The notes under the pieces are model-generated. The model was not told where the DNA came from and ran no database searches. It saw nothing but the letters and a program-made list of their open reading frames with translations. The position numbers and the translations under genes were made by a program. Positions 9,164 to 29,063 of a stretch of 64,000 nt of DNA are shown here, in pieces. This DNA comes from Bacillota bacterium (GTDB lineage: Bacteria; Bacillota; Limnochordia; Darwinibacteriales; DTU012): NCBI GenBank assembly GCA_012520795.1, contig JAAYNP010000031.1:30771-94770 (forward strand), in the 5' to 3' direction. Every line of letters starts with the position of its first letter. The stretch's first letter is position 1.

Positions 9164-9421
9164 CTAGATCTTGATATCCAGCCGGTTACCCGAAGACCTG
9201 TGCCGCTTTTGGCGGGTTTTCTCTTCAGAACTCTTCCTTCGCTGATTGCGCAGGCGATGAGCTCTGGGACTGCGGTTCACCTTTTTTGGCATTGCGGCAT
9301 GCTGCTGTGCCACGACGCTAGCCAGCTTTCCAGCTCCAGTCGGGTCGCCTTCCCGCAGAACTTTCGGGATTTGATCCGTTCTGCCAATCAACACTTGCAT
9401 GTCCGGAAATTTGATTGACAT
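9164..9421 (-). CDS. hypothetical small basic protein (85 aa) coupled to sigD
   Basis: ATG preceded by AAGGAGGG at about 9 nt. The gap after the sigD stop is 24 nt. The C-terminal half is very Arg/Lys-rich. No family recognised. Confidence 0.4.
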   Translation of the reverse strand: MSIKFPDMQVLIGRTDQIPKVLREGDPTGAGKLASVVAQQHAAMPKKVNRSPRAHRLRNQRRKSSEEKTRQKRHRSSGNRLDIKI

Positions 9422-9445: not shown

Positions 9446-10207
9446 TTAAACAAACTTAAGTTTTGACCGGAGGGCTCTGATAGCTTGACTGTGAATCTGG
9501 CTGATGCGTGATTCGGATACGGCAAGTATATGGCCAATCTCTTTCAGGGTGAGCCCTTCATGGTAATACAGGGACACTACCAAACGCTGCTTCTCCTCAA
9601 GTTCGTCGACTGCCGCAGCCAGTTCCTGCAGCGTTTCTTGATCAATAAGTTCCTGATCAATAACTGCCTCAGGATCATTGATCGTATCGAGAAGGGTAAT
9701 AGAATCTGCGTCAGAATCGCCCGTCAGATGATCATCCAGGGACAGCAAGGAAATGTTTCTTACTTGATCGAGTGTTTCATAGTATTTCTCCAGGGGCATC
9801 TGGAGCGCAGATGCCACTTCCCGTTCAGTCGGTGTTCGGCCCAGTTCATGTTCCAATTTCATAATTGCCTGATCGATCCTTTTTGCCTTATTCCGGACGC
9901 TTCTCGGTATCCAATCGGTAGAACGCAGCCCGTCGATAATTCCACCGCGAATCCGTACACTGGCATAGGTTTCAAACTTGATATCTCTGTTCAGGTCATA
10001 TTTTTCAATAGCATCAATCAGGCCAAATACGCCATAGCTGATTAAATCGTGAAACTCTACATTATCGGGAAGATGAATAGCAATCCTGCCGGCTATGTAC
10101 TGTACCAGGGGCAGATACTCTTCAATGATCTGCTCTCTTGCGGAAAGATCATTATTAAATTTATACTGCTGCCACAGGTCAGTAAGCTCAACGCTTTCTC
10201 TATCCAT
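9446..10207 (-). CDS. sigD: flagellar sigma factor SigD/FliA (sigma-28)
   Basis: Sigma-70 regions 2 and 4 are present (...EYLPLVQYIAGR..., ...LTLKEIGHILAVSESRISQI...). I prefer the internal start MDRESVELTDLW, which gives 253 aa, because the upstream part overlaps the PilZ gene. It sits at the end of the fla operon. Confidence 0.85.
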   Translation of the reverse strand: MDRESVELTDLWQQYKFNNDLSAREQIIEEYLPLVQYIAGRIAIHLPDNVEFHDLISYGVFGLIDAIEKYDLNRDIKFETYASVRIRGGIIDGLRSTDWIPRSVRNKAKRIDQAIMKLEHELGRTPTEREVASALQMPLEKYYETLDQVRNISLLSLDDHLTGDSDADSITLLDTINDPEAVIDQELIDQETLQELAAAVDELEEKQRLVVSLYYHEGLTLKEIGHILAVSESRISQIHSQAIRALRSKLKFV

Positions 10208-10220
10208 GCCCACCAACTTC

Positions 10221-10868
10221 CTAAGCCTTTTCGTCAATCTTCTTACGATAGATTTCGATCTGGCGTTTATAAACGTATTGAATGATCTCCAGACGAGTGC
10301 GTTCATCAATATTTTCAAATATACAGCCGTACTCAAAACCATATTCGGTCCGGGCCCCACGCAAAATCCTGCAGTATAACCGGATTATCGTCCCTCCAAT
10401 TGGAAGATCTACATAGATCTGTGAACCCAACTCCAGTTCTTCCTGTGTGACACAGAGCAGCCCGCCGCCGCTGATGTCTTTAACGCGGCAGGGAATATCT
10501 CCGTTGTAGGTTGCATCAATATAAACACTGACTCTGACATAATCTCTCAGCTGGATCTTCTGCCATTCAGTCGTTAGGTTTACCAACAAGACAGGGACAT
10601 TATTGTCCCTGAAGCGCCGTTCAACCACGCCGGCAGCTTCATACCGCCCCTGATGAACCACATCATAATTGTAAAACGATATGGTCACCATCGTTTCGCG
10701 CCTGATGGGCACGATATCTCCGTCCACAATCGGAGCCGCTAACAACAAGTAGCCTCGCTCTTCATCCAGGTCTTCAACGCGTGTATGATAGACTCTCCGA
10801 TCTTCACCATCGCCGACGGCTAGTTCAACTCTTTGGTTAGGGCTAATTAGCAAAAGTATTCCTCCCAA
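10221..10868 (-). CDS. PilZ-domain flagellar brake protein (YcgR/MotI-like)
   Basis: PilZ c-di-GMP motifs (...RRE..., DISGGGLL) are present. It lies immediately downstream of flhG. Confidence 0.75.
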   Translation of the reverse strand: MGGILLLISPNQRVELAVGDGEDRRVYHTRVEDLDEERGYLLLAAPIVDGDIVPIRRETMVTISFYNYDVVHQGRYEAAGVVERRFRDNNVPVLLVNLTTEWQKIQLRDYVRVSVYIDATYNGDIPCRVKDISGGGLLCVTQEELELGSQIYVDLPIGGTIIRLYCRILRGARTEYGFEYGCIFENIDERTRLEIIQYVYKRQIEIYRKKIDEKA

Positions 10869-11703
10869 AAGGCATTCTTACATTGGCCGTTACCTGGTTG
10901 GCGCTTAGAAAAGCTTTGGTCAGCAGATTCTCAGCAACACTATACACAGAGCGGCTTGCACTTGATCCCGGATACGCCAAAAGGAAAGCCTGCTGCGCTC
11001 TCACCGCAGATACAACTTTCGGATCAAAAAACACACAGCCCACGTATTTGACTTCGCGCTGCAGGAATCGGCTTGTCATCATGTTGATCTTCTGCCACAC
11101 CAATAATCCTTCATTGGGTGAGCGGACCATATTGGCTAAAATGGTGATCTCTTTTTCCGGCTCCCGCTGCAAAATCGTTTTAATCAGCCCATAAGCGTCA
11201 GCGATACTGCTGGGCTCAGAAGTCGCCACAACCAGCACTTCGCTGACAGCCATGATTACACGGATCACTTTCCGCGCTAAACCGGCACTTGTGTCGACGA
11301 TTAAGAAGTCAAGTTCCCCGTTCAAATGGATTGCAGCGGAAATCAGGCGGTCCAAGCCCATTTGACTAATATTCGCCAGCTCATAGACACCAGAACCTCC
11401 GGCAATTACCTTAAGCCCCAGCGGCCCCTCAATTACGATATCACTTAGTTCTCTTTTTCCATTGACAATATCAAGCAAAGTGTATTTTGGGTAAACACCC
11501 AAGAGCAAATCGGCGTTGGCCAGGCCTAGATCTCCATCGAGCAATGCTACTTTCTGATTCATGTTTATTAGAGCCAAAGCCAAATTAATCGCAATGTTTG
11601 TCTTTCCCACACCGCCTTTACCGCTCGTTACGGCAACAGTGCGGGCAACAGTGCATGGATCTCGATTAACAAGGTCGCGCAGCCGCTGTGCTTGGTCGTT
11701 CAT
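10843..11703 (-). CDS. flhG: flagellar number regulator FlhG (MinD/ParA-type ATPase, YlxH)
   Basis: Deviant Walker A VTSGKGGVGKTNIAINLA; flhF-flhG synteny. Confidence 0.85.
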   Translation of the reverse strand: MNDQAQRLRDLVNRDPCTVARTVAVTSGKGGVGKTNIAINLALALINMNQKVALLDGDLGLANADLLLGVYPKYTLLDIVNGKRELSDIVIEGPLGLKVIAGGSGVYELANISQMGLDRLISAAIHLNGELDFLIVDTSAGLARKVIRVIMAVSEVLVVATSEPSSIADAYGLIKTILQREPEKEITILANMVRSPNEGLLVWQKINMMTSRFLQREVKYVGCVFFDPKVVSAVRAQQAFLLAYPGSSASRSVYSVAENLLTKAFLSANQVTANVRMPFGRNTFAN

Positions 11704-11705
11704 TG

Positions 11706-12314
11706 CTAGCCCCCCAAAACCATACTCGTCAGCTGATCATTTTCTGCAATTTCTATATCATCTGGCACACTTTGCCCATTTGTAATAAAAGCGATCGGCA
11801 CTCGGGCATAATCCGGCGCTTCAACCAAGATACCAAAACTTTGTGTTTCATCAAGTTTGGTGATGATTAGATTATCAATTTCCAGTTCCTTAAACGCATC
11901 AATAATTGCCATCAAATCGTTGCTTTTTGTTGTTGCACTAATCACTAGATACTTCTCCACACTTAGGTCATTAAAAGCCATATTCAACTCTGACATCCGT
12001 TCACGGTTATGATGGCTGCATCCATAAGTATCAATTAGGATTAAGTCCATATCTGCATAAGCATTCAATGCTGAGGCCAATCCACTGCTGGAATAAACGG
12101 CGGTTAGGGGTACATTCATAATATCAGCGTATTTTTTCAGGTGTACCACTGCTGCAATCCGGTAGGTATCCAAAGTGATCAGCCCAACTTTCTTGCGGGC
12201 AATAAGATGGTAATTCGCCGCAAGTTTCGCAATGGTGGTAGTTTTGCCGACACCGGTGGGGCCTATAAATGCCACCACTTTCTGTACTCCAGTAAACTCC
12301 CAGGGTGTATCCAC
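11706..12314 (-). CDS. flhF: flagellar biosynthesis GTPase FlhF, C-terminal NG/GTPase fragment (gene split by frameshift)
   Basis: GTG start. It carries [22 protein letters not shown] and TKLDET SRP-GTPase motifs and the FlhF C-terminus ITNGQSVPDDIEI. The reading frame continues upstream without a stop into the N-fragment region. Confidence 0.7.
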   Translation of the reverse strand: MDTPWEFTGVQKVVAFIGPTGVGKTTTIAKLAANYHLIARKKVGLITLDTYRIAAVVHLKKYADIMNVPLTAVYSSSGLASALNAYADMDLILIDTYGCSHHNRERMSELNMAFNDLSVEKYLVISATTKSNDLMAIIDAFKELEIDNLIITKLDETQSFGILVEAPDYARVPIAFITNGQSVPDDIEIAENDQLTSMVLGG

Positions 12315-12340
12315 CTGTATTAAACTGCTGATCTCAGTTC

Positions 12341-12745
12341 TCAGCTTTTTTTCAACAACTCGGTCTCGTTCCAGTCTTGTTTGGGTACCTGTTGTAAAAC
12401 CGTTTTCACAATTCTAACGGCCAGAGCATGGGACAGATCCTGGCTGGATAACAGTTGATATAGTAACTGGATGGCACTGCTGCTGTCTGCAACGCCCAAA
12501 TCCTGATCCTGAACGGCTGCCGGCTTCTGGTTATGACTAGAAGTAGTGAGAACTTGTTTTCTGCCGGGCTGGGCATTTGGATCAACTGCCCCCAATACCT
12601 CGTACTGCTTCTTGCCGAACAGCCCAAGAAAGCGGCCTTTCTTCACAATTTTGGTCTGCAGGATTATGGCATCGTCCCCAAATTCAGCCTTCATCTTCGT
12701 CACTGCATCTGGCAATGTCTCCCCGCGGAATTTTTTAATCCTCAT
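12341..12745 (-). CDS. flhF: FlhF N-terminal (B-domain) fragment, terminated at an A7 run
   Basis: MRIKKFRGETLPDAVTKMKAEFGDDAIILQTK matches the FlhF N-terminus. It ends LLKKS* at the sense-strand sequence gaaaaaaagc, and the -1 frame reads on into the GTPase fragment. Confidence 0.65.
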   Translation of the reverse strand: MRIKKFRGETLPDAVTKMKAEFGDDAIILQTKIVKKGRFLGLFGKKQYEVLGAVDPNAQPGRKQVLTTSSHNQKPAAVQDQDLGVADSSSAIQLLYQLLSSQDLSHALAVRIVKTVLQQVPKQDWNETELLKKS

Positions 12746-17659: not shown

Positions 17660-17986
17660 TTACTCACCACCTTCCCCTTGAACCGAAGACAATCCTTGAT
17701 CACCTGTTTGGAACACAGCTACGCCTTGCTTGTCGATGATCGTAATCTGTTGGCCGCCGAGCGCAAGCAGGTACCGGTTTTCAGCCCACTCCACGACATA
17801 TAAGAACCGGTTCCCCCCCAGCGGAACCCGTTCCCTTATATGCACTGTACTATGCGCCTTGTGGGCTTTGGCGTACCATCGGGTAACAAAGTACATGATT
17901 GGGATCAGGCAGGCCAGAATAACAACTACTTTAACAAAACCAATCACCATTTCTGAATCAAACAAATCCACCACTGCCACCCCCAC
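17660..17986 (-). CDS. fliO: flagellar biosynthesis protein FliO/FliZ (single-TM)
   Basis: 108 aa with one TM helix, directly upstream of fliP as in B. subtilis fliZ. It is not CheY-like. Confidence 0.55.
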   Translation of the reverse strand: MGVAVVDLFDSEMVIGFVKVVVILACLIPIMYFVTRWYAKAHKAHSTVHIRERVPLGGNRFLYVVEWAENRYLLALGGQQITIIDKQGVAVFQTGDQGLSSVQGEGGE

Positions 17987-18053
17987 CTGTTCCCAGTTTG
18001 CATCCTATTGTATGGTGATAAATTCGATTTTTGTCAAGTTTCTCCTGCACAAT

Positions 18054-19004
18054 TTAGGATTTTATCCGATTGAGGTTGCTGTCAATTTCGAGGATTCTTA
18101 AACCAAGATGATCATCAACGACCATGATCTCGGCACTGGCTATATTCTGATCAAAGACATAGACATCAGCAGGATCTCCGGCGGCTTTTTGGAGAGTGAT
18201 CACATCACCACTCTTAAGTTTCATGATCTCATCAAGGTTCATTGTGGTGGTTCCCAATTCGGCAATCACGGGAATAGTGACATCAGAGACAATTTCCATC
18301 GAGTGTCTCGCGCTTTCGGGCTGATCAACCGTAAGACTGTCAAACTCGAAAGACTCTATTTGGACTACCTTTGGTTTTTTGATATTCACAGCCCGGCGGT
18401 TCCTAACTTGTCTTCCCACTATTGGGCTTTCAGTTTTCTTGTCCATACCCTCAAGAAGTTTGTCCCCCTGCAGCAGCCAAAACAGTTCAACGCTGGATGA
18501 ATTAAAGCAGATATTATAGTGGACGATATGACTTGGGACCGATGACATGGACCCAAGCTGGGCTGGAGGTATTTTGTTCACAGGCAGGATATTGCCGTAG
18601 TGCCAATAGCCGGTCAGCTCAGTCAGGAACTCCGAAACCGTATTCACGAACTCCTCGACCAGCAAATCCACAGCCCTTACCAAATCAACATTGAGGAAAC
18701 CGGCCATCTCTTCTGCATCCCTTGTGTGGATCAATACAAACGAAGTGCTAAATTGGAAATTGACAGGGTATGCATAGATGGCCTCGTCTTCGGCATAAAG
18801 CTTCGTCAAGTGGCCTTGTGTGCGTTCAGCATAAAACCCGTCGATGGAAATGGGCGTGCCAAAAAACTTGATCATGTGCTTTTCCAACAGAAAATTCGCC
18901 CCTTGCAGCAGTTCGGTCAGTTTCTGATCGAACAAAGAATCCATCTGCCGGTTTTGGGCTGATAATGCATTCATTTCCGCCTGCGTAAATTGAAACTCAC
19001 TCAT
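18054..19004 (-). CDS. fliN: flagellar motor switch protein of FliN/FliY type (N-terminal CheY-binding-like peptide + C-terminal FliN/SpoA domain)
   Basis: C-terminus IPVIAELGTTTMNLDEIMKLKSGDVITL...IASAEIMVVDDHLGLRILEI fits the FliN consensus (GEVVVV...GVRI). The N-terminus EFQFTQAEMNAL resembles the LSQxEIDALL peptide. It lacks the FliM GGxG and RxYDF motifs. It is the only C-ring gene between fliL and fliO. Confidence 0.7.
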   Translation of the reverse strand: MSEFQFTQAEMNALSAQNRQMDSLFDQKLTELLQGANFLLEKHMIKFFGTPISIDGFYAERTQGHLTKLYAEDEAIYAYPVNFQFSTSFVLIHTRDAEEMAGFLNVDLVRAVDLLVEEFVNTVSEFLTELTGYWHYGNILPVNKIPPAQLGSMSSVPSHIVHYNICFNSSSVELFWLLQGDKLLEGMDKKTESPIVGRQVRNRRAVNIKKPKVVQIESFEFDSLTVDQPESARHSMEIVSDVTIPVIAELGTTTMNLDEIMKLKSGDVITLQKAAGDPADVYVFDQNIASAEIMVVDDHLGLRILEIDSNLNRIKS

Positions 19005-19016
19005 ATGATTAACCCC

Positions 19017-19475
19017 TTATTGGAATACCAAGTCTATAAAGAAAATATCAGAAACCTTTTCCGTTCCAAACAATTCGTTGATCGCGCCAATCAGTTTGGC
19101 TTTTAACTGTACCAAGCCGTCGGGAGCACTTAAATCTGCCAAGGTACACGTGCGGAGTATTGTAATTATCCGATCCCGGATTTGCGGTTCGCGCCTTTCT
19201 GCCTCTCGCACGTCGCTGTCTTTGGTGAATTCCAATACGATTCCGGTGCGAATAAACCTGATCGAATTCGTTCCGGCCAAATTTACGGTAAATTCACCGA
19301 TTTCATATGTAGGGCCAATATCCCGGGCGCCACCGTCAGCCTTCTCCGCGCCCGTGTTGGGAGTATTGCGGGCTAGCATCATATACGCAGTGAATGCACT
19401 CCCGACTGAAGCTATGATTACCAATGCCAGCGCAACAATTACAAATCTGAAATCAACCTCGACCTTTTTACTCAA
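19017..19475 (-). CDS. fliL: flagellar basal body-associated protein FliL
   Basis: 152 aa with an N-terminal TM helix and the FliL-type periplasmic domain. It sits before the switch gene. Confidence 0.75.
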   Translation of the reverse strand: MSKKVEVDFRFVIVALALVIIASVGSAFTAYMMLARNTPNTGAEKADGGARDIGPTYEIGEFTVNLAGTNSIRFIRTGIVLEFTKDSDVREAERREPQIRDRIITILRTCTLADLSAPDGLVQLKAKLIGAINELFGTEKVSDIFFIDLVFQ

Positions 19476-20216: not shown

Positions 20217-21012
20217 CGGTCCTCACTTCCTCAGTCACTTGTTCAATGGCTTCTCCCCGGCTTACCTTACGATAACGAGGCAAGAACGCATTCAGTTTTT
20301 CCTCGATAATCCGCGGGTTTTCCCCAGCGCGAATAGAAAGGATTCCTTCGATCATGATTTCCTTAACCAAGACCTCCTTGTCGTTCTGTAAGCGCAGTCT
20401 GTCGGCAATCGGCAAAAAGACCAGGTTAGCCAAAACTACGCCATACAATGTGGTGATCAGGGCAACTGCCATTCCTACACCAAGATTACGGGCGTCTTCC
20501 ATCTTCTGCAGCATCATGATCAAACCAATCAGTGTTCCAATCATCCCGAACGCAGGGCAATACCCGCCAAGCCGTTCAAAGATCCGCTGGCCAACTGAAT
20601 GGCGTTCCTCCATGTAGCTGAGCTCAATTTCAAGGATGCCCCGGACCAAATCAGGATCGGTACCATCCACCACCAATTGAATGCCTTTCTGCAAAAATGG
20701 TTCATCCAGCTCTTGGGCTCTCTCCTCCAGCGCCAGTAATCCCTCGCGCCGCGAGATTTCGGCAAATCGCACAATGGTGGCAATAATCTCCAGCGGATTC
20801 GGCTCCTTATGGGTCAAGGCCACTTTCAGAACATGCCCAAGACTGGCCAATTCCTTGATGGAGAAGTTAACCATTGTCGCGGCAAAGGAGCCGCCCAGAG
20901 TAATCATAATACTCTGTACATTCCAATAAGCTCCAATGTGGCCGCTTAATGCTATGGAACCAATAATCAAACCGAAACCCAGCACTAGACCTAACAGCAG
21001 CGAAAGATCCAT
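20203..21012 (-). CDS. motA: flagellar stator protein MotA
   Basis: 269 aa four-TM protein with a cytoplasmic loop; MotA/TolQ/ExbB family; overlaps motB start. Confidence 0.85.
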   Translation of the reverse strand: MDLSLLLGLVLGFGLIIGSIALSGHIGAYWNVQSIMITLGGSFAATMVNFSIKELASLGHVLKVALTHKEPNPLEIIATIVRFAEISRREGLLALEERAQELDEPFLQKGIQLVVDGTDPDLVRGILEIELSYMEERHSVGQRIFERLGGYCPAFGMIGTLIGLIMMLQKMEDARNLGVGMAVALITTLYGVVLANLVFLPIADRLRLQNDKEVLVKEIMIEGILSIRAGENPRIIEEKLNAFLPRYRKVSRGEAIEQVTEEVRTGAQA

Positions 21013-21075
21013 TTTCAGACCCCATTTCGTTCATGGTAAGGGGCTCTCCAGCCCCTTACCACTTGTTACAATAGT

Positions 21076-22317
21076 TTATCGTTTCAGGTTTACCAGCTCC
21101 TGCAGCATCTCATCAGCAGAAGTGATGATCCTTGAGTTGGCCTGAAAGCCTCTCTGGGTAATAATCATCTCTGTGAATTCGTTACTTAAATCCACGTTGG
21201 ACATCTCCAGTGAGTTGGACATGATCGCCCCGAACCCTTTGGAATTGGCCGGCCCTCTAACCGCATCGCCTGAAGCAACGGTCGCCTCGAACATTGTGTC
21301 TCCCACCTTGAGGAGACCCGGCGGGTTCTTGAATTGGGCAAGGGCTATTTGCCCCAATTGCCTGATCAAACCATTCGAGTAGCTCCCGATCAGTATTCCG
21401 GAGCGGTCAATGGATACTCCATCCAATTCACCGGGAGGCAATCCATTCTGCCGCAGGACTACAACGGAAGTCTCATCGGCATATTGCCTGACACCGCTGA
21501 AGTCAAGGGTGAACTCGAGATTGGTGTTTTCCACCAAAGGCAGTGCAGCTGCGGGGATCTCCACTTCTACATCTGTTACGGACTGAACTGTGCCATCATC
21601 GTTAAAGGTGATTGTACCACTGCCCCACTCAGTTGACGGATCATCTTCCTCCAACCGGGCGGTCCACTGCCACTCGTTCCCATCATTCTTGGTGAATGTG
21701 ATCAACACCCGATGAGTATCACCATTGGCGTCATACACAGTGGCAATCCGTACAACTTGTCCACCCTCTTCCGTGGCCGATGAGATATTACCGCTGAGAA
21801 CAACTTCGCTCGTAGCCGTTGCATTGATTGAACTCACGCTTTCAGTGATTTCGATTGCCTTCAGTTCAACATCTGTGGAAATGTTCCCGTTTACATCAGC
21901 CAGGTAACCCATTACCGGCAATCCGTTCAGCCTGGATACCAAGGCATTGTTCTCGTCAAACCCAAACATCCCTGCCCTCGTGTAGTACTGCTTCGTGCCA
22001 TCGCTGAGTATGAAGAAACCATTTCCTTCAATGGCCAAATCGGTATCGCTGCTGGATGATTGGGTTCCTCCTTGGGTATGAATTACATCAATTGAACCTA
22101 ATCTAGAGCCTAAGCCAACCTGCTGCGCATTGACAGACCCCCGCCCTCCTTGGGCCGCGGTGGCAGCAGCCAGTGTTTGGTAAAGGGCTTCCTTGAAGGT
22201 TGCCCGTGAATACTTGAAGCCAACAGTATTTACGTTTGCAATATTGTTTCCAATTACATCCATCCGGACTTGATGATTCTGCAATCCGGAAACACCTGCA
22301 AACAACGAACGCATCAT
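21076..22317 (-). CDS. flgE: flagellar hook protein FlgE
   Basis: N-terminus MMRSLFAGVSGLQNHQVRMDVIGNNIANVNTVGFK is the flagellar rod/hook N-terminal motif. The C-terminus ...GFQANSRIITSADEMLQELVNLKR confirms it. Confidence 0.9.
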   Translation of the reverse strand: MMRSLFAGVSGLQNHQVRMDVIGNNIANVNTVGFKYSRATFKEALYQTLAAATAAQGGRGSVNAQQVGLGSRLGSIDVIHTQGGTQSSSSDTDLAIEGNGFFILSDGTKQYYTRAGMFGFDENNALVSRLNGLPVMGYLADVNGNISTDVELKAIEITESVSSINATATSEVVLSGNISSATEEGGQVVRIATVYDANGDTHRVLITFTKNDGNEWQWTARLEEDDPSTEWGSGTITFNDDGTVQSVTDVEVEIPAAALPLVENTNLEFTLDFSGVRQYADETSVVVLRQNGLPPGELDGVSIDRSGILIGSYSNGLIRQLGQIALAQFKNPPGLLKVGDTMFEATVASGDAVRGPANSKGFGAIMSNSLEMSNVDLSNEFTEMIITQRGFQANSRIITSADEMLQELVNLKR

Positions 22318-22390: not shown

Positions 22391-22780
22391 CTATGATATC
22401 ACCGCACTGTCAATATTGGTAAAGACATTGTCTCTCAGCCTCTCGTGGTTTATGGCTGTAATCACTGTCCTGTTTTTGACACTGACTACGAAAGCCATAT
22501 CACGCATGAGGATCAATGATTCCCTACCACCCTTGGCTTCCACCTTGTCAACTGCTTCTGTAAGCTTTGCCATTTCCGATTCGCTGAGATTGATCCCATT
22601 GGCCGCCATCCTTTTTTGGGCATGAGCGGAAAACTTCAGCCAAGATTGATCCAGCTTCTTTTGTAAAACTTCCTGGAAACTGGCAGCAGCTGCACCGGCT
22701 TTTGGCTTTGCTTGGGGTGGAGCCGGTTTACTTAACGGTATGACAGGGTTTGTATTGGGAATCTGAAATTTAGTTTCCAA
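22391..22780 (-). CDS. flagellar operon protein (TIGR02530-like small protein between flgD and flgE)
   Basis: I prefer a TTG/GTG start near 22780, preceded by GGAGGAGGGG, which gives about 130 aa. The long ATG-start version would overlap flgD by 158 nt. Confidence 0.5.
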   Translation of the reverse strand: METKFQIPNTNPVIPLSKPAPPQAKPKAGAAAASFQEVLQKKLDQSWLKFSAHAQKRMAANGINLSESEMAKLTEAVDKVEAKGGRESLILMRDMAFVVSVKNRTVITAINHERLRDNVFTNIDSAVIS

Positions 22781-23231
22781 CACTAGTCCCCTCCTCCATG
22801 ATGGAGACAATTTCGGAAAAACTGTACAGCTTGCCGTCAACAACGATTTCCGGCCATTCATTCTTAAATTGAATACCGGTAACCTTGCCATACAGGCTTT
22901 CACCTTCAACGGTATAGATTTCAACAACTTTGCCGATCATGGCCGTAGCCTGCCCCAAAGCTGTCAGTTTCTGCTGTGATTCCATCATCATCTTAATCGT
23001 CTCGTTCAAATTCTGCATCTGTTCCAAGCTGCTGAACTGGGCCAGCTGAGCAATGAACTCCTTATCATCTACTGGGCTTGTGGGATCCTGGTAACGCAGT
23101 TGAGTGATGAGCAATTTCAGAAAATCATCTTTACCCAGCGCAACAGCATTAAGTGTCTTGTTGCTGTTACTTACCCCATCCTTGTTCTGGGTGTCATTGG
23201 CCTGATAGGCGTAATTGGTATTTACCTGCAC
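22770..23231 (-). CDS. flgD: flagellar hook assembly/capping protein FlgD
   Basis: ...LGKDDFLKLLITQLRYQDPTSPVDDKEFIAQLAQFSSLEQMQNL is the FlgD signature. Confidence 0.85.
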   Translation of the reverse strand: MQVNTNYAYQANDTQNKDGVSNSNKTLNAVALGKDDFLKLLITQLRYQDPTSPVDDKEFIAQLAQFSSLEQMQNLNETIKMMMESQQKLTALGQATAMIGKVVEIYTVEGESLYGKVTGIQFKNEWPEIVVDGKLYSFSEIVSIMEEGTSVGN

Positions 23232-27288: not shown

Positions 27289-28048
27289 AGATCTGCTCCT
27301 GCAATTCAGTGCTTAGTTTAGCAAAGCGCTGCTCAAAGCCGGCATCAATAGCGCCATACTCGGTCTCAAGCAGACAATCACCGTCCCGCAAGGCGGGATC
27401 ACTCTCCCAACGGATTTTTCCATTGAATACGTCCGCTAGTGATGCCGCATCCTTAAGCACTTGACAAGTTTGAGGGCTAACGCGGATGATAACCTGCTCA
27501 CAGCCTGACAAACGTTCCAATCCAGCTTTGATGCTGGGCAGCAGCAAAGTTGGATCCGATGCAATTTCTTTCTTAATTATCTTTTCGGCTATGTAGAGGC
27601 TAAGCTTTAGATAGTCTTCCTCCAGCTTTGCAAGGGCAGCGCTGCGTTGCTCTGCAGCACTCTCGGCAATTGCAGCCATACTGTCAAGAAACTGAGCAGC
27701 CTTTTGTTGAATCTCCTGATATCCGGTTTCCCGTCCCTTGTGATATCCCTCGGCAAAACCATCCTGCTGCGCTTTACTGATTACTGCGTCCAGTTCACTT
27801 TCGATTCGGGCTTTCTCTGCCTCAGCCTTGCTGACTATTTCATTGGCTTTGGCCTGGGCTGCTTCAATAATTGCAGCAGCCTTTGCGTTAGCGTCGTCAA
27901 TCAACTGAGTTGCTTGAAAAATGGTGCAATCCGCCTTTTGCGACTCTTTGACCTTAACGTTATCGATTTCAGCTTCCGGCCGAAAGATCTGATCCTGACT
28001 GCTGGGAACCAAAATCTGCAGTTGAGCAGCTTTGATGATCTTAGACAA
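27278..28048 (-). CDS. fliH: flagellar assembly protein FliH
   Basis: 256 aa coiled-coil protein with a C-terminal FliH/YscL-like region, between fliG and fliI. Confidence 0.75.
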   Translation of the reverse strand: MSKIIKAAQLQILVPSSQDQIFRPEAEIDNVKVKESQKADCTIFQATQLIDDANAKAAAIIEAAQAKANEIVSKAEAEKARIESELDAVISKAQQDGFAEGYHKGRETGYQEIQQKAAQFLDSMAAIAESAAEQRSAALAKLEEDYLKLSLYIAEKIIKKEIASDPTLLLPSIKAGLERLSGCEQVIIRVSPQTCQVLKDAASLADVFNGKIRWESDPALRDGDCLLETEYGAIDAGFEQRFAKLSTELQEQIYAK

Positions 28049-29063
28049 TCAGTTCATCCTCCCCACCGCGTGAAATCACCAAATCACCGGCTTCCTCAAG
28101 CCGTCTTACAACAGCGACTATGCGTGTCTGAGCCTCATCGATATCGCGAAGCCTTACCGGCCCCATAAAATCTATGTCTTCTTTGAGAAGAGTGGCTGCT
28201 CTCTTGGACATATTGCGATAGATCCGATCCGAAACTTCTTCAGAAGCGGTCTTCAATGCCAGAGCCAAATCCTTTGATTCCACTTCTCTAATAATAAGCT
28301 GAATGGCACGGTCGTCGAGATTGATGATATCTTCAAAGACAAACATCCTTTTGCGGATTTCTTCAGCCAATTCAGGATCGTCCTCTTCCAGCGCTTCCAT
28401 GATTGTCTTTTCCGTGCTCCGATCAACATGATTGAGAATCTCTACAGCGGCATCAATTCCGCCTGCGACTGTGTAATCATGTACTTCATACGCTGATAAT
28501 CTCTGTTCGAGGGTGCTTTCAATATCTTCCAACACCTCCGGCGTGGTTCTATCCAGCGTTGCCAAACGCTTGGCCACATCGACCTGCCGCTCCGGAGGGA
28601 GTGCCGACAGTACCAAGCTTGCTTGCTCGGGCTTCAAGTATGCCAAAACCAAGGCAATGGTCTGAGGGTGCTCATTCTGAATGAAATTCAGAATCTGGGT
28701 AGGTTCTGTTTTACGGGCAAAATCAAACGGCCTTACCTGAAGCGTAGCCGTAAGCCTTTCTATGATTACACGAGCTCTTTCTTTACCCAGAGCCGCTTCC
28801 AGAACTTCTCTGGCATAGGCAATTCCACCTTGTTCTATGTACTCTTGCGCCTGCATCATTCCGTCAAATTCGTTTAACACACGCTCACGGGCCTCCGGTT
28901 CGATCCTGCGCATACTAGCTATTTGCAGAGTGAGATCCTCAATCTCCTCATCCGACAAATGCTTGAACACTTGAGCAGAAGCCTCAGGGCCTAGTGCAAT
29001 CAATAGAATGGCAGCTTTTTCTTTACCAGTCAATCTTCCCTTCAATTCAGCCCATCTCCTCAT
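28041..29063 (-). CDS. fliG: flagellar motor switch protein FliG
   Basis: 340 aa; FliG N, middle and C domains are present (...EIEDLTLQIA..., ...MFVFEDIINLDDRAIQLIIREV...). Confidence 0.95.
   Translation of the reverse strand: MRRWAELKGRLTGKEKAAILLIALGPEASAQVFKHLSDEEIEDLTLQIASMRRIEPEARERVLNEFDGMMQAQEYIEQGGIAYAREVLEAALGKERARVIIERLTATLQVRPFDFARKTEPTQILNFIQNEHPQTIALVLAYLKPEQASLVLSALPPERQVDVAKRLATLDRTTPEVLEDIESTLEQRLSAYEVHDYTVAGGIDAAVEILNHVDRSTEKTIMEALEEDDPELAEEIRKRMFVFEDIINLDDRAIQLIIREVESKDLALALKTASEEVSDRIYRNMSKRAATLLKEDIDFMGPVRLRDIDEAQTRIVAVVRRLEEAGDLVISRGGEDELIV

Follow-up and report, generated by a model that had tools for sequence, protein, structure and literature searches.

A lone, sequence-orphan switch-class gene between fliL and fliO in the reduced flagellar operon of a Bacillota lineage

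The main flagellar (fla) operon in a 64,000-nucleotide stretch of a Bacillota bacterium (lineage DTU012 of the Darwinibacteriales; assembly GCA_012520795.1, contig JAAYNP010000031.1, positions 30,771 to 94,770), the whole of which is referred to here as the window, holds one switch-class gene between fliL and fliO. This gene, X, encodes a protein of 316 amino acids (18054-19004, minus strand) and represents a sequence-orphan branch among switch proteins of the CheC/FliM fold, one that is rare, had not been described before and is tied to a reduced fla operon. The layout is conserved across a deep lineage, and the protein is made of three parts, the middle one lying outside the known sequence families. 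Our favoured, if tentative, reading is that X is a FliY-class subunit that has lost phosphatase activity and that a canonical fliM lies elsewhere in the genome.

The fla operon and its relatives

An earlier note, made from the letters of this DNA alone, had proposed a single switch-type gene between fliL and fliO, and both the listing of open reading frames (ORFs) and the sequence confirm it. On the minus strand, fliL (19017-19475; PF03748, E = 7e-21) ends 12 nt upstream of X, whose sole Pfam match is FliMN_C, and X is followed by fliO (17660-17986, minus strand; PF04347, E = 3e-7). As the note had also argued, these short intervals leave no room for fliM, cheY or flbD. The spacer between X and fliO (17987-18053, minus strand), which is the cheY slot of canonical operons, is indeed short, measuring 67 nt and not the 68 bp given before. 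The spacer between flgE and motA, the flbD slot, spans 63 nt as described (21013-21075, minus strand; by ORF coordinates flgE ends at 21076 and motA starts at 21012). Where clostridial and Bacillus operons carry che genes, between flhG and sigD, there is a YcgR-like PilZNR+PilZ gene, in line with the original proposal (10221-10868, minus strand; PF12945 and PF07238). None of fliM, cheY, flbD, cheA, cheB, cheW, cheC and cheD was found in the 64-kb window, in which the relevant gaps are too small for them and the remainder consists of housekeeping genes.

The gene order given in the note was also borne out. Pfam matches confirm flgB, flgC, fliE, fliF, fliG, fliH, fliI, fliJ, an MgtE_N/ylxF-like gene, fliK, flgD, Flagellar_put, flgE, motA, motB, fliL, fliO, fliP, flhF, flhG, the PilZNR+PilZ gene and sigD, while fliQ, fliR, flhB and flhA were assigned through matching ORF sizes and precomputed Pfam matches of syntenic relatives. 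The fliG gene (28041-29063, minus strand) is fully canonical, with FliG_N, FliG_M and FliG_C matched at E ~1e-38 to 1e-47 and NEHPQT present. Genes for the distal rod, hook junction, filament and cap are absent from the operon, and other flagellar loci must therefore exist.

Searching a word-indexed collection of 5.8 billion proteins identified eight full-length homologues of X, at 42-100% identity. An exhaustive hidden Markov model search of 1.84 billion representative proteins, using a profile of X residues 1-205, retrieved 23 clusters that form one family, the complete members of which are all 300-329 amino acids long. This profile of the N-terminal and middle parts retrieved no canonical FliM or FliY from the same representatives. 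Named sources of the family are exclusively metagenome-assembled genomes of uncultured Bacillota/Firmicutes or Clostridia, and database annotations read 'hypothetical' or 'FliN'. A look through the literature found nothing on fliM-less Firmicutes.

The synteny comparison suggested in the note gave a uniform result. All ten relatives with retrieved context (~25-73% identity) have the single-gene arrangement, in the local order motA-motB-fliL-X and then fliO, so the layout is not an accident of assembly. Longer contigs run onward through fliP-fliQ-fliR-flhB-flhA-flhF-flhG-pilZ-sigD, an ORF of 86 amino acids, DUF6115 and rpsB, and flbD is absent from all X-family loci that cover the slot between flgE and motA. 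For comparison, the canonical Firmicute loci L016 and L017 read flbD-fliL-fliM-fliY, and L016 continues with cheY-fliO, a response regulator of 120 amino acids occupying the cheY place.

In both of these comparators fliY was called as two ORFs (L016 2593-3755, L017 5001-6156), a CheC part and a separate FliN part of 71-99 amino acids; the two overlap by 37 nt in L016, and the FliN part lies ~160 nt downstream in L017. The split calls probably reflect selection bias, given that the search used the middle domain alone as its query and ranked truncated FliY calls highest. Among the relatives of X, an 81-amino-acid 'FliN' (P0030) was considered as a separate fliN gene and rejected, since a run of N cuts the call of the X orthologue at that site (L014 9193-10246; DGEU01000041.1, GCA_002386125.1). 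A word-index search with the C-terminal 111 amino acids of X gave only two matches.

Architecture and divergence of X

As modelled with AlphaFold2, X has the three-module architecture common to FliM and FliY, namely an N-terminal peptide, a folded middle domain and, after a disordered linker, a SpoA domain. The note had described a peptide and a FliN domain; both parts stand, and what it overlooked is the folded domain between them, at residues ~22-190.

The N-terminal peptide (codons 5-15, QFTQAEMNALS; 18960-18992, minus strand) was identified from family alignments and from comparison with E. coli FliM and with Firmicute FliM and FliY. It is a variant of the EIDAL motif: the N-terminus of X, MSEFQFTQAEMNALS, resembles that of E. 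coli FliM, MGDSILSQAEIDALL, and distant members of the family carry the textbook peptide SILSQAEIDALL. Judged against the FliM-type consensus for binding phosphorylated CheY (CheY-P), LSQxEIDALL, the stretch FTQAEMNALS in the window protein is a peptide of this kind. Both CheY-P and FlhG dock at the EIDAL motif of FliM and FliY. FlhG binds FliY in B. subtilis and the N-terminus of FliM in monotrichous species (PMC12826062). Since flhG, encoding a MinD/ParA-type ATPase, is itself part of the operon (10843-11703, minus strand; ParA and CbiA matches) and is a possible partner of the peptide, the presence of the peptide need not imply CheY.

The C-terminal domain (codons 239-307; 18084-18290, minus strand) is, by sequence comparison, a SpoA domain of the FliN/FliY type and not of the FliM_C type. 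PF01052 matches it at E = 1e-20 (73.8 bits against a cut-off of 23.8) and is found in 24 of 24 family members, and the fliN model TIGR02480 reaches 75.8 bits, just under its equivalog cut-off of 84. The FliM model TIGR01397 covers residues 237-305 only (33.5 bits, cut-off 219.6) and the FliY model NF005995 residues 205-314 only (66 bits, cut-off 218). In BLASTP, the best matches of the domain are a C-terminal piece of a FliY (38% identity) and E. coli FliN (32%), FliM C-termini being weaker.

The middle domain (codons 22-188; 18441-18941, minus strand) is unrecognisable by sequence. It is modelled with a predicted local distance difference test (pLDDT) score of ~64-89, mostly above 75, and the predicted structure falls within the CheC/CheX/FliM fold. 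The basic linker that follows (codons 189-238; 18291-18440, minus strand) is disordered, with pLDDT below 50 over residues 189-240, and poorly conserved (10-27% identity within the lineage). Pfam and NCBIfam searches with X, with its N-terminal 234 residues and with all 24 family members matched FliMN_C only. In none of the 24 did residues ~22-190 have any match at E <= 10, be it to PF02154 (FliM), PF04509 (CheC) or PF13690, and a PDB sequence search with the N-terminal profile returned nothing at E <= 10. No confident assignment of X to FliM, which the note had named as the result that would make the arrangement a normal one, came out of the profile search. The note's statement that this locus does not encode FliM is valid where sequence families are concerned; it does not extend to the fold, as the middle domain is confidently modelled with that of FliM, FliY and CheC.

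Comparisons with hhalign used a FliM alignment (E. coli, two Firmicute loci, and T. maritima and H. pylori PDB chains) and a FliY alignment (120 matches to the T. maritima FliY middle domain). The N-terminal and middle parts of the X family together scored 93% against FliM, covering FliM 1-224, and 97% against FliY, values that are due to the shared N-terminal peptide. The middle domain alone gave a probability of 1-3% and the wrong register against the FliM middle domain, and of 9-25% (E = 7.6e-4) and the correct register against that of FliY, whereas the FliM and FliY middle domains gave 97.7% against each other. When the family alignment was compared with the single E. coli FliM sequence, the SpoA part alone aligned. 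The middle domain of X is thus farther from FliM and from FliY than FliM is from FliY.

Of the CheC signature [DS]x3Ex2Nx22P, site 1 is absent from X, both in alignment with T. maritima FliY and CheC and in the family alignment, and site 2 is represented by E118xxN121 in the six closest members only and not family-wide; the domain is predicted to be phosphatase-dead. The FliM motifs GGXG and YDFxRP are missing, and the note had likewise seen no FliM hallmarks (RxYDF, GGxG). The GGXG loop reads LN in the close clade (FLN-VDL in the window) and GG, GS or GT in distant members, and SLFD stands where FliM has YDF. The tether from the peptide to the middle domain is much shorter than in canonical Firmicute FliM or FliY comparators. 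Together with the FliN-type C-terminus, the hhalign values and the motifs lean towards a FliY-class origin; by its sequence features, X falls into neither the FliY nor the FliM family.

Non-synonymous divergence (dN) in X is well below synonymous divergence (dS), dS being saturated for most of the pairs and segments compared, which indicates a functional gene under purifying selection. The lowest dN is found in the N-terminal peptide and the SpoA domain, and no other folded element of the operon evolves as fast as the middle domain. Between the window and the relatives L004 and L012, respectively, it retains 43% and 19% identity, compared with 71% and 53% for the SpoA domain of X, 63% and 45% for FliL, 70% and 57% for MotA, and 80% and 72% for FliP. 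The middle domain of FliG is 89% identical between the window and L004, with no value available for L012. Overall, FliG is 85-95% identical within the lineage and retains EHPQ(T)...R, the FliM-binding motif. A FliG middle domain that is nearly invariant beside a fast-drifting X middle domain suggests that its partner is another, conserved protein.

Competing readings of the switch

If X is a lineage-specific, fast-evolving C-ring protein of the FliY class, its SpoA domain would build the base of the C-ring, its N-terminal peptide would dock CheY-P and/or FlhG, and the degenerate middle domain would be retained as a structural module under loose constraint. From its main fla operon, the lineage would have lost fliM, cheY, flbD and the che genes. 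That a canonical fliM, with cheY and che genes, lies in another flagellar or chemotaxis locus, as in Clostridioides difficile, seems to us slightly more probable than not. We favour this reading because of the discordant rates of the FliG and X middle domains and the missing GGXG, and because FliM is near-universal and other flagellar loci must exist. To our knowledge, flagellated bacteria share a conserved set of core genes that includes fliM, and FliM and FliN (or FliY) count among the universal core parts of the flagellum. In C. difficile, fliM and fliN(Y) lie after fliA-flgG, away from the slot between fliL and fliO, and an extra fliN paralogue is found elsewhere (PMC10889297, Table 1).

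Among known systems, X is most like FliY, the switch phosphatase of B. subtilis and T. maritima (PDB 4HYN for the middle domain), in module order, operon position and type of SpoA domain. It differs from FliY in a middle domain that matches none of PF04509, PF13690 and NF005995 and in which the catalytic ExxN/P is missing or fragmentary, in being shorter overall with a shorter tether, and in having no fliM upstream and no cheY downstream. Canonical FliY middle domains are 45-53% identical between Thermotoga and Firmicutes, whereas that of X evolves several times faster. The FliY of Helicobacter and Campylobacter offers a further likeness, as a FliN-type protein with an extra N-terminal region; these species also encode separate FliM and FliN (PMC8809382; PMC12826062).

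Several points weigh against a FliY-class subunit with fliM elsewhere. No fliM was seen in the window, in the ~10-kb flanks of the relatives' loci, or in the 10 kb to the right of the window, which was read on another sample's contig carrying the identical window-end protein and holds only recG, fakA and fab genes, with neither fliM nor any che gene. The usual Firmicute arrangement keeps fliM and fliY/fliN together, and it would be unusual for fliM to move alone while a FliY-like gene stays. If purifying selection maintains a catalytically dead middle domain throughout a deep lineage, that domain would need a function, for which FliG binding would be the obvious candidate. The joint absence of cheY, flbD and the che genes also fits general streamlining.

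The main alternative is a minimal C-ring, which we regard as a serious contender without expecting it to prevail. Here, X would be the sole FliM/FliN-class protein, a FliM-FliN hybrid whose middle domain binds FliG and whose SpoA domain provides the base ring. The middle domain would be under relaxed constraint because che genes and switching had been lost, and the EIDAL peptide would be kept for FlhG-driven assembly. Consistent with this, the precise place of fliM and fliY is taken by one gene throughout the deep lineage, and this gene has all three FliM modules and retains a middle domain that is catalytically dead; the losses extend to cheY, flbD and che genes, and FlhG in the operon makes the peptide explicable without CheY. 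However, this reading conflicts with the general standing of FliM as a conserved flagellar core gene, and a near-invariant FliG middle domain is hard to reconcile with an X middle domain that drifts fast and has no GGXG. In one variant, a product of ~111 amino acids from an internal start may supply free FliN-like subunits, as in the injectisome protein SctQ.

The candidate for such a start (18387-18404, minus strand) combines AGGA at 18401-18404, a distance of 11 nt and a GTG at codon 206 (18387-18389), which would yield a FliN-sized product of 111 amino acids. The window has GTG-Val at the corresponding linker column, where 7 of its 8 closest homologues have ATG/Met; a start codon is thus present in 8 of 9 close-clade genes, and members P0010 and P0011 also have Met. 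In 6 of 8, an AGGAG- or AGGA-like motif stands 10-11 nt upstream. As scanning a single gene for a Shine-Dalgarno (SD) motif plus a start is uninformative alone (many sites arise by chance), sites were ranked across the close-clade alignment instead; no internal SD-like signal anywhere in the gene is stronger than the one directly upstream of this column, and only four internal start-codon columns, this one included, are conserved (~p = 0.05, from few independent lineages). This moderate SD support, the long spacing, the lack of an SD motif in P0007, P0008, P0010 and the distant members, and the lack of a conserved internal Met in distant members of the family all count against an internal product as part of a minimal C-ring. 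An internal start in X, which would be compatible with a FliY-class subunit and with a minimal C-ring alike, is in our view a possibility, though less likely than not, and the column could also be a relic of fusion to an ancestral fliN start.

Precedents for such a product exist. For the T. maritima FliN* (FliY 235-343), which matches the 111-amino-acid product in size, McDowell et al. proposed an internal GTG after a purine-rich stretch, and the C-terminal products of Spa33, YscQ and SsaQ are likewise of that size (PMC4832279). SctQ (Spa33, YscQ, SpaO) resembles X in that a single gene provides the FliM-like and FliN-like parts of the cytoplasmic ring, its C-terminal SpoA product arising from an internal start (PMC4832279) in a place equivalent to that of the conserved candidate start in X. 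It differs in having two tandem SpoA domains, no CheC-fold domain and no EIDAL peptide, and X lies in a bona fide flagellar operon. The full version of this idea, a one-gene C-ring in which full-length X is a FliM-like wall subunit and the 111-amino-acid product is FliN, possibly without CheY-driven switching, seems to us unlikely.

It is less probable still that X is the true, very diverged fliM orthologue, in which an in-frame fliM-fliY deletion put a FliN-type SpoA domain behind the N-terminal and middle parts of FliM, with a separate fliN or fliY elsewhere. Its position directly after fliL, the SLFD motif at the place of the FliM YDF, the full-length Foldseek alignment of the X model to Salmonella FliM and the 93% hhalign value over FliM 1-224 would all suit this origin. 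However, the hhalign signal is gone once the shared N-terminal peptide is removed, the C-terminal domain is of the FliN/FliY type, the tether is far shorter than in either FliM or FliY comparators, and the evolutionary rate is unlike that of FliM. X has a fold in common with FliM (PDB 7DM9, 4GC8, 3SOH, 8UMD) and differs from it in having no PF02154 or TIGR01397 match outside the SpoA domain, neither GGXG nor YDFxRP, a FliN-type SpoA domain and a middle domain at 1-3% in hhalign. Finally, a decaying flagellar system with X as the remnant of a degraded fliM-fliY pair, to which a frameshifted flhF in the window and several missing accessory genes might point, is barely credible, as the flagellar ORFs other than flhF are all intact and canonical, an uninterrupted X with dN well below dS and the layout around it are kept across the deep lineage, and the flhF break lies at an A7 run and is absent in relatives.

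Neighbouring features and implications

The operon is embedded in housekeeping genes with Bacillus-type synteny, namely xerC-hslV-hslU-codY upstream and DUF6115-rpsB-tsf-pyrH-frr-uppS-cdsA-dxr-rseP downstream. Within it, flhF (11706-12745, minus strand) is split into two frames of 134 and 202 amino acids, with the break near 12341-12356 at the A7 run (GTTGTTGAAAAAAAGCTGA); in relatives for which the gene call is complete and without gaps, flhF is one ORF of 331-358 amino acids. The split probably stems from a homopolymer error, made in sequencing or in assembly, or else from a recent frameshift. An ORF of 85 amino acids with no Pfam match (9164-9421, minus strand) lies between sigD and the DUF6115 gene, and a small ORF of 82-86 amino acids is kept in the same place in every relative whose locus extends there. 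Two mechanical ORF calls are longer than their counterparts in relatives: sigD (9446-10360, minus strand) has 304 amino acids compared with 248-253, and Flagellar_put (22391-22927, minus strand) has 178 compared with 128-132. The true starts of both are probably internal, that of sigD near MDRESVE (~10207), and with such starts the seeming overlaps with pilZ and flgD disappear. Every relative whose locus extends that far has the YcgR-like PilZNR+PilZ gene as a constant member of the operon, which suggests motor braking by cyclic di-GMP in a lineage without che genes in its main operon.

In summary, a deep lineage carries a single sequence-orphan gene in place of FliM and FliN/FliY. Labels such as 'hypothetical' and 'FliN' overlook the folded middle domain of the family, a point that matters for annotation. 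If X is a remodelled FliY paralogue, it shows how fast a C-ring domain drifts after ceasing to serve as a phosphatase. If a one-gene FliM/FliN ring were true, it would link flagellar C-rings to injectisome SctQ and provide a test of models of C-ring assembly.

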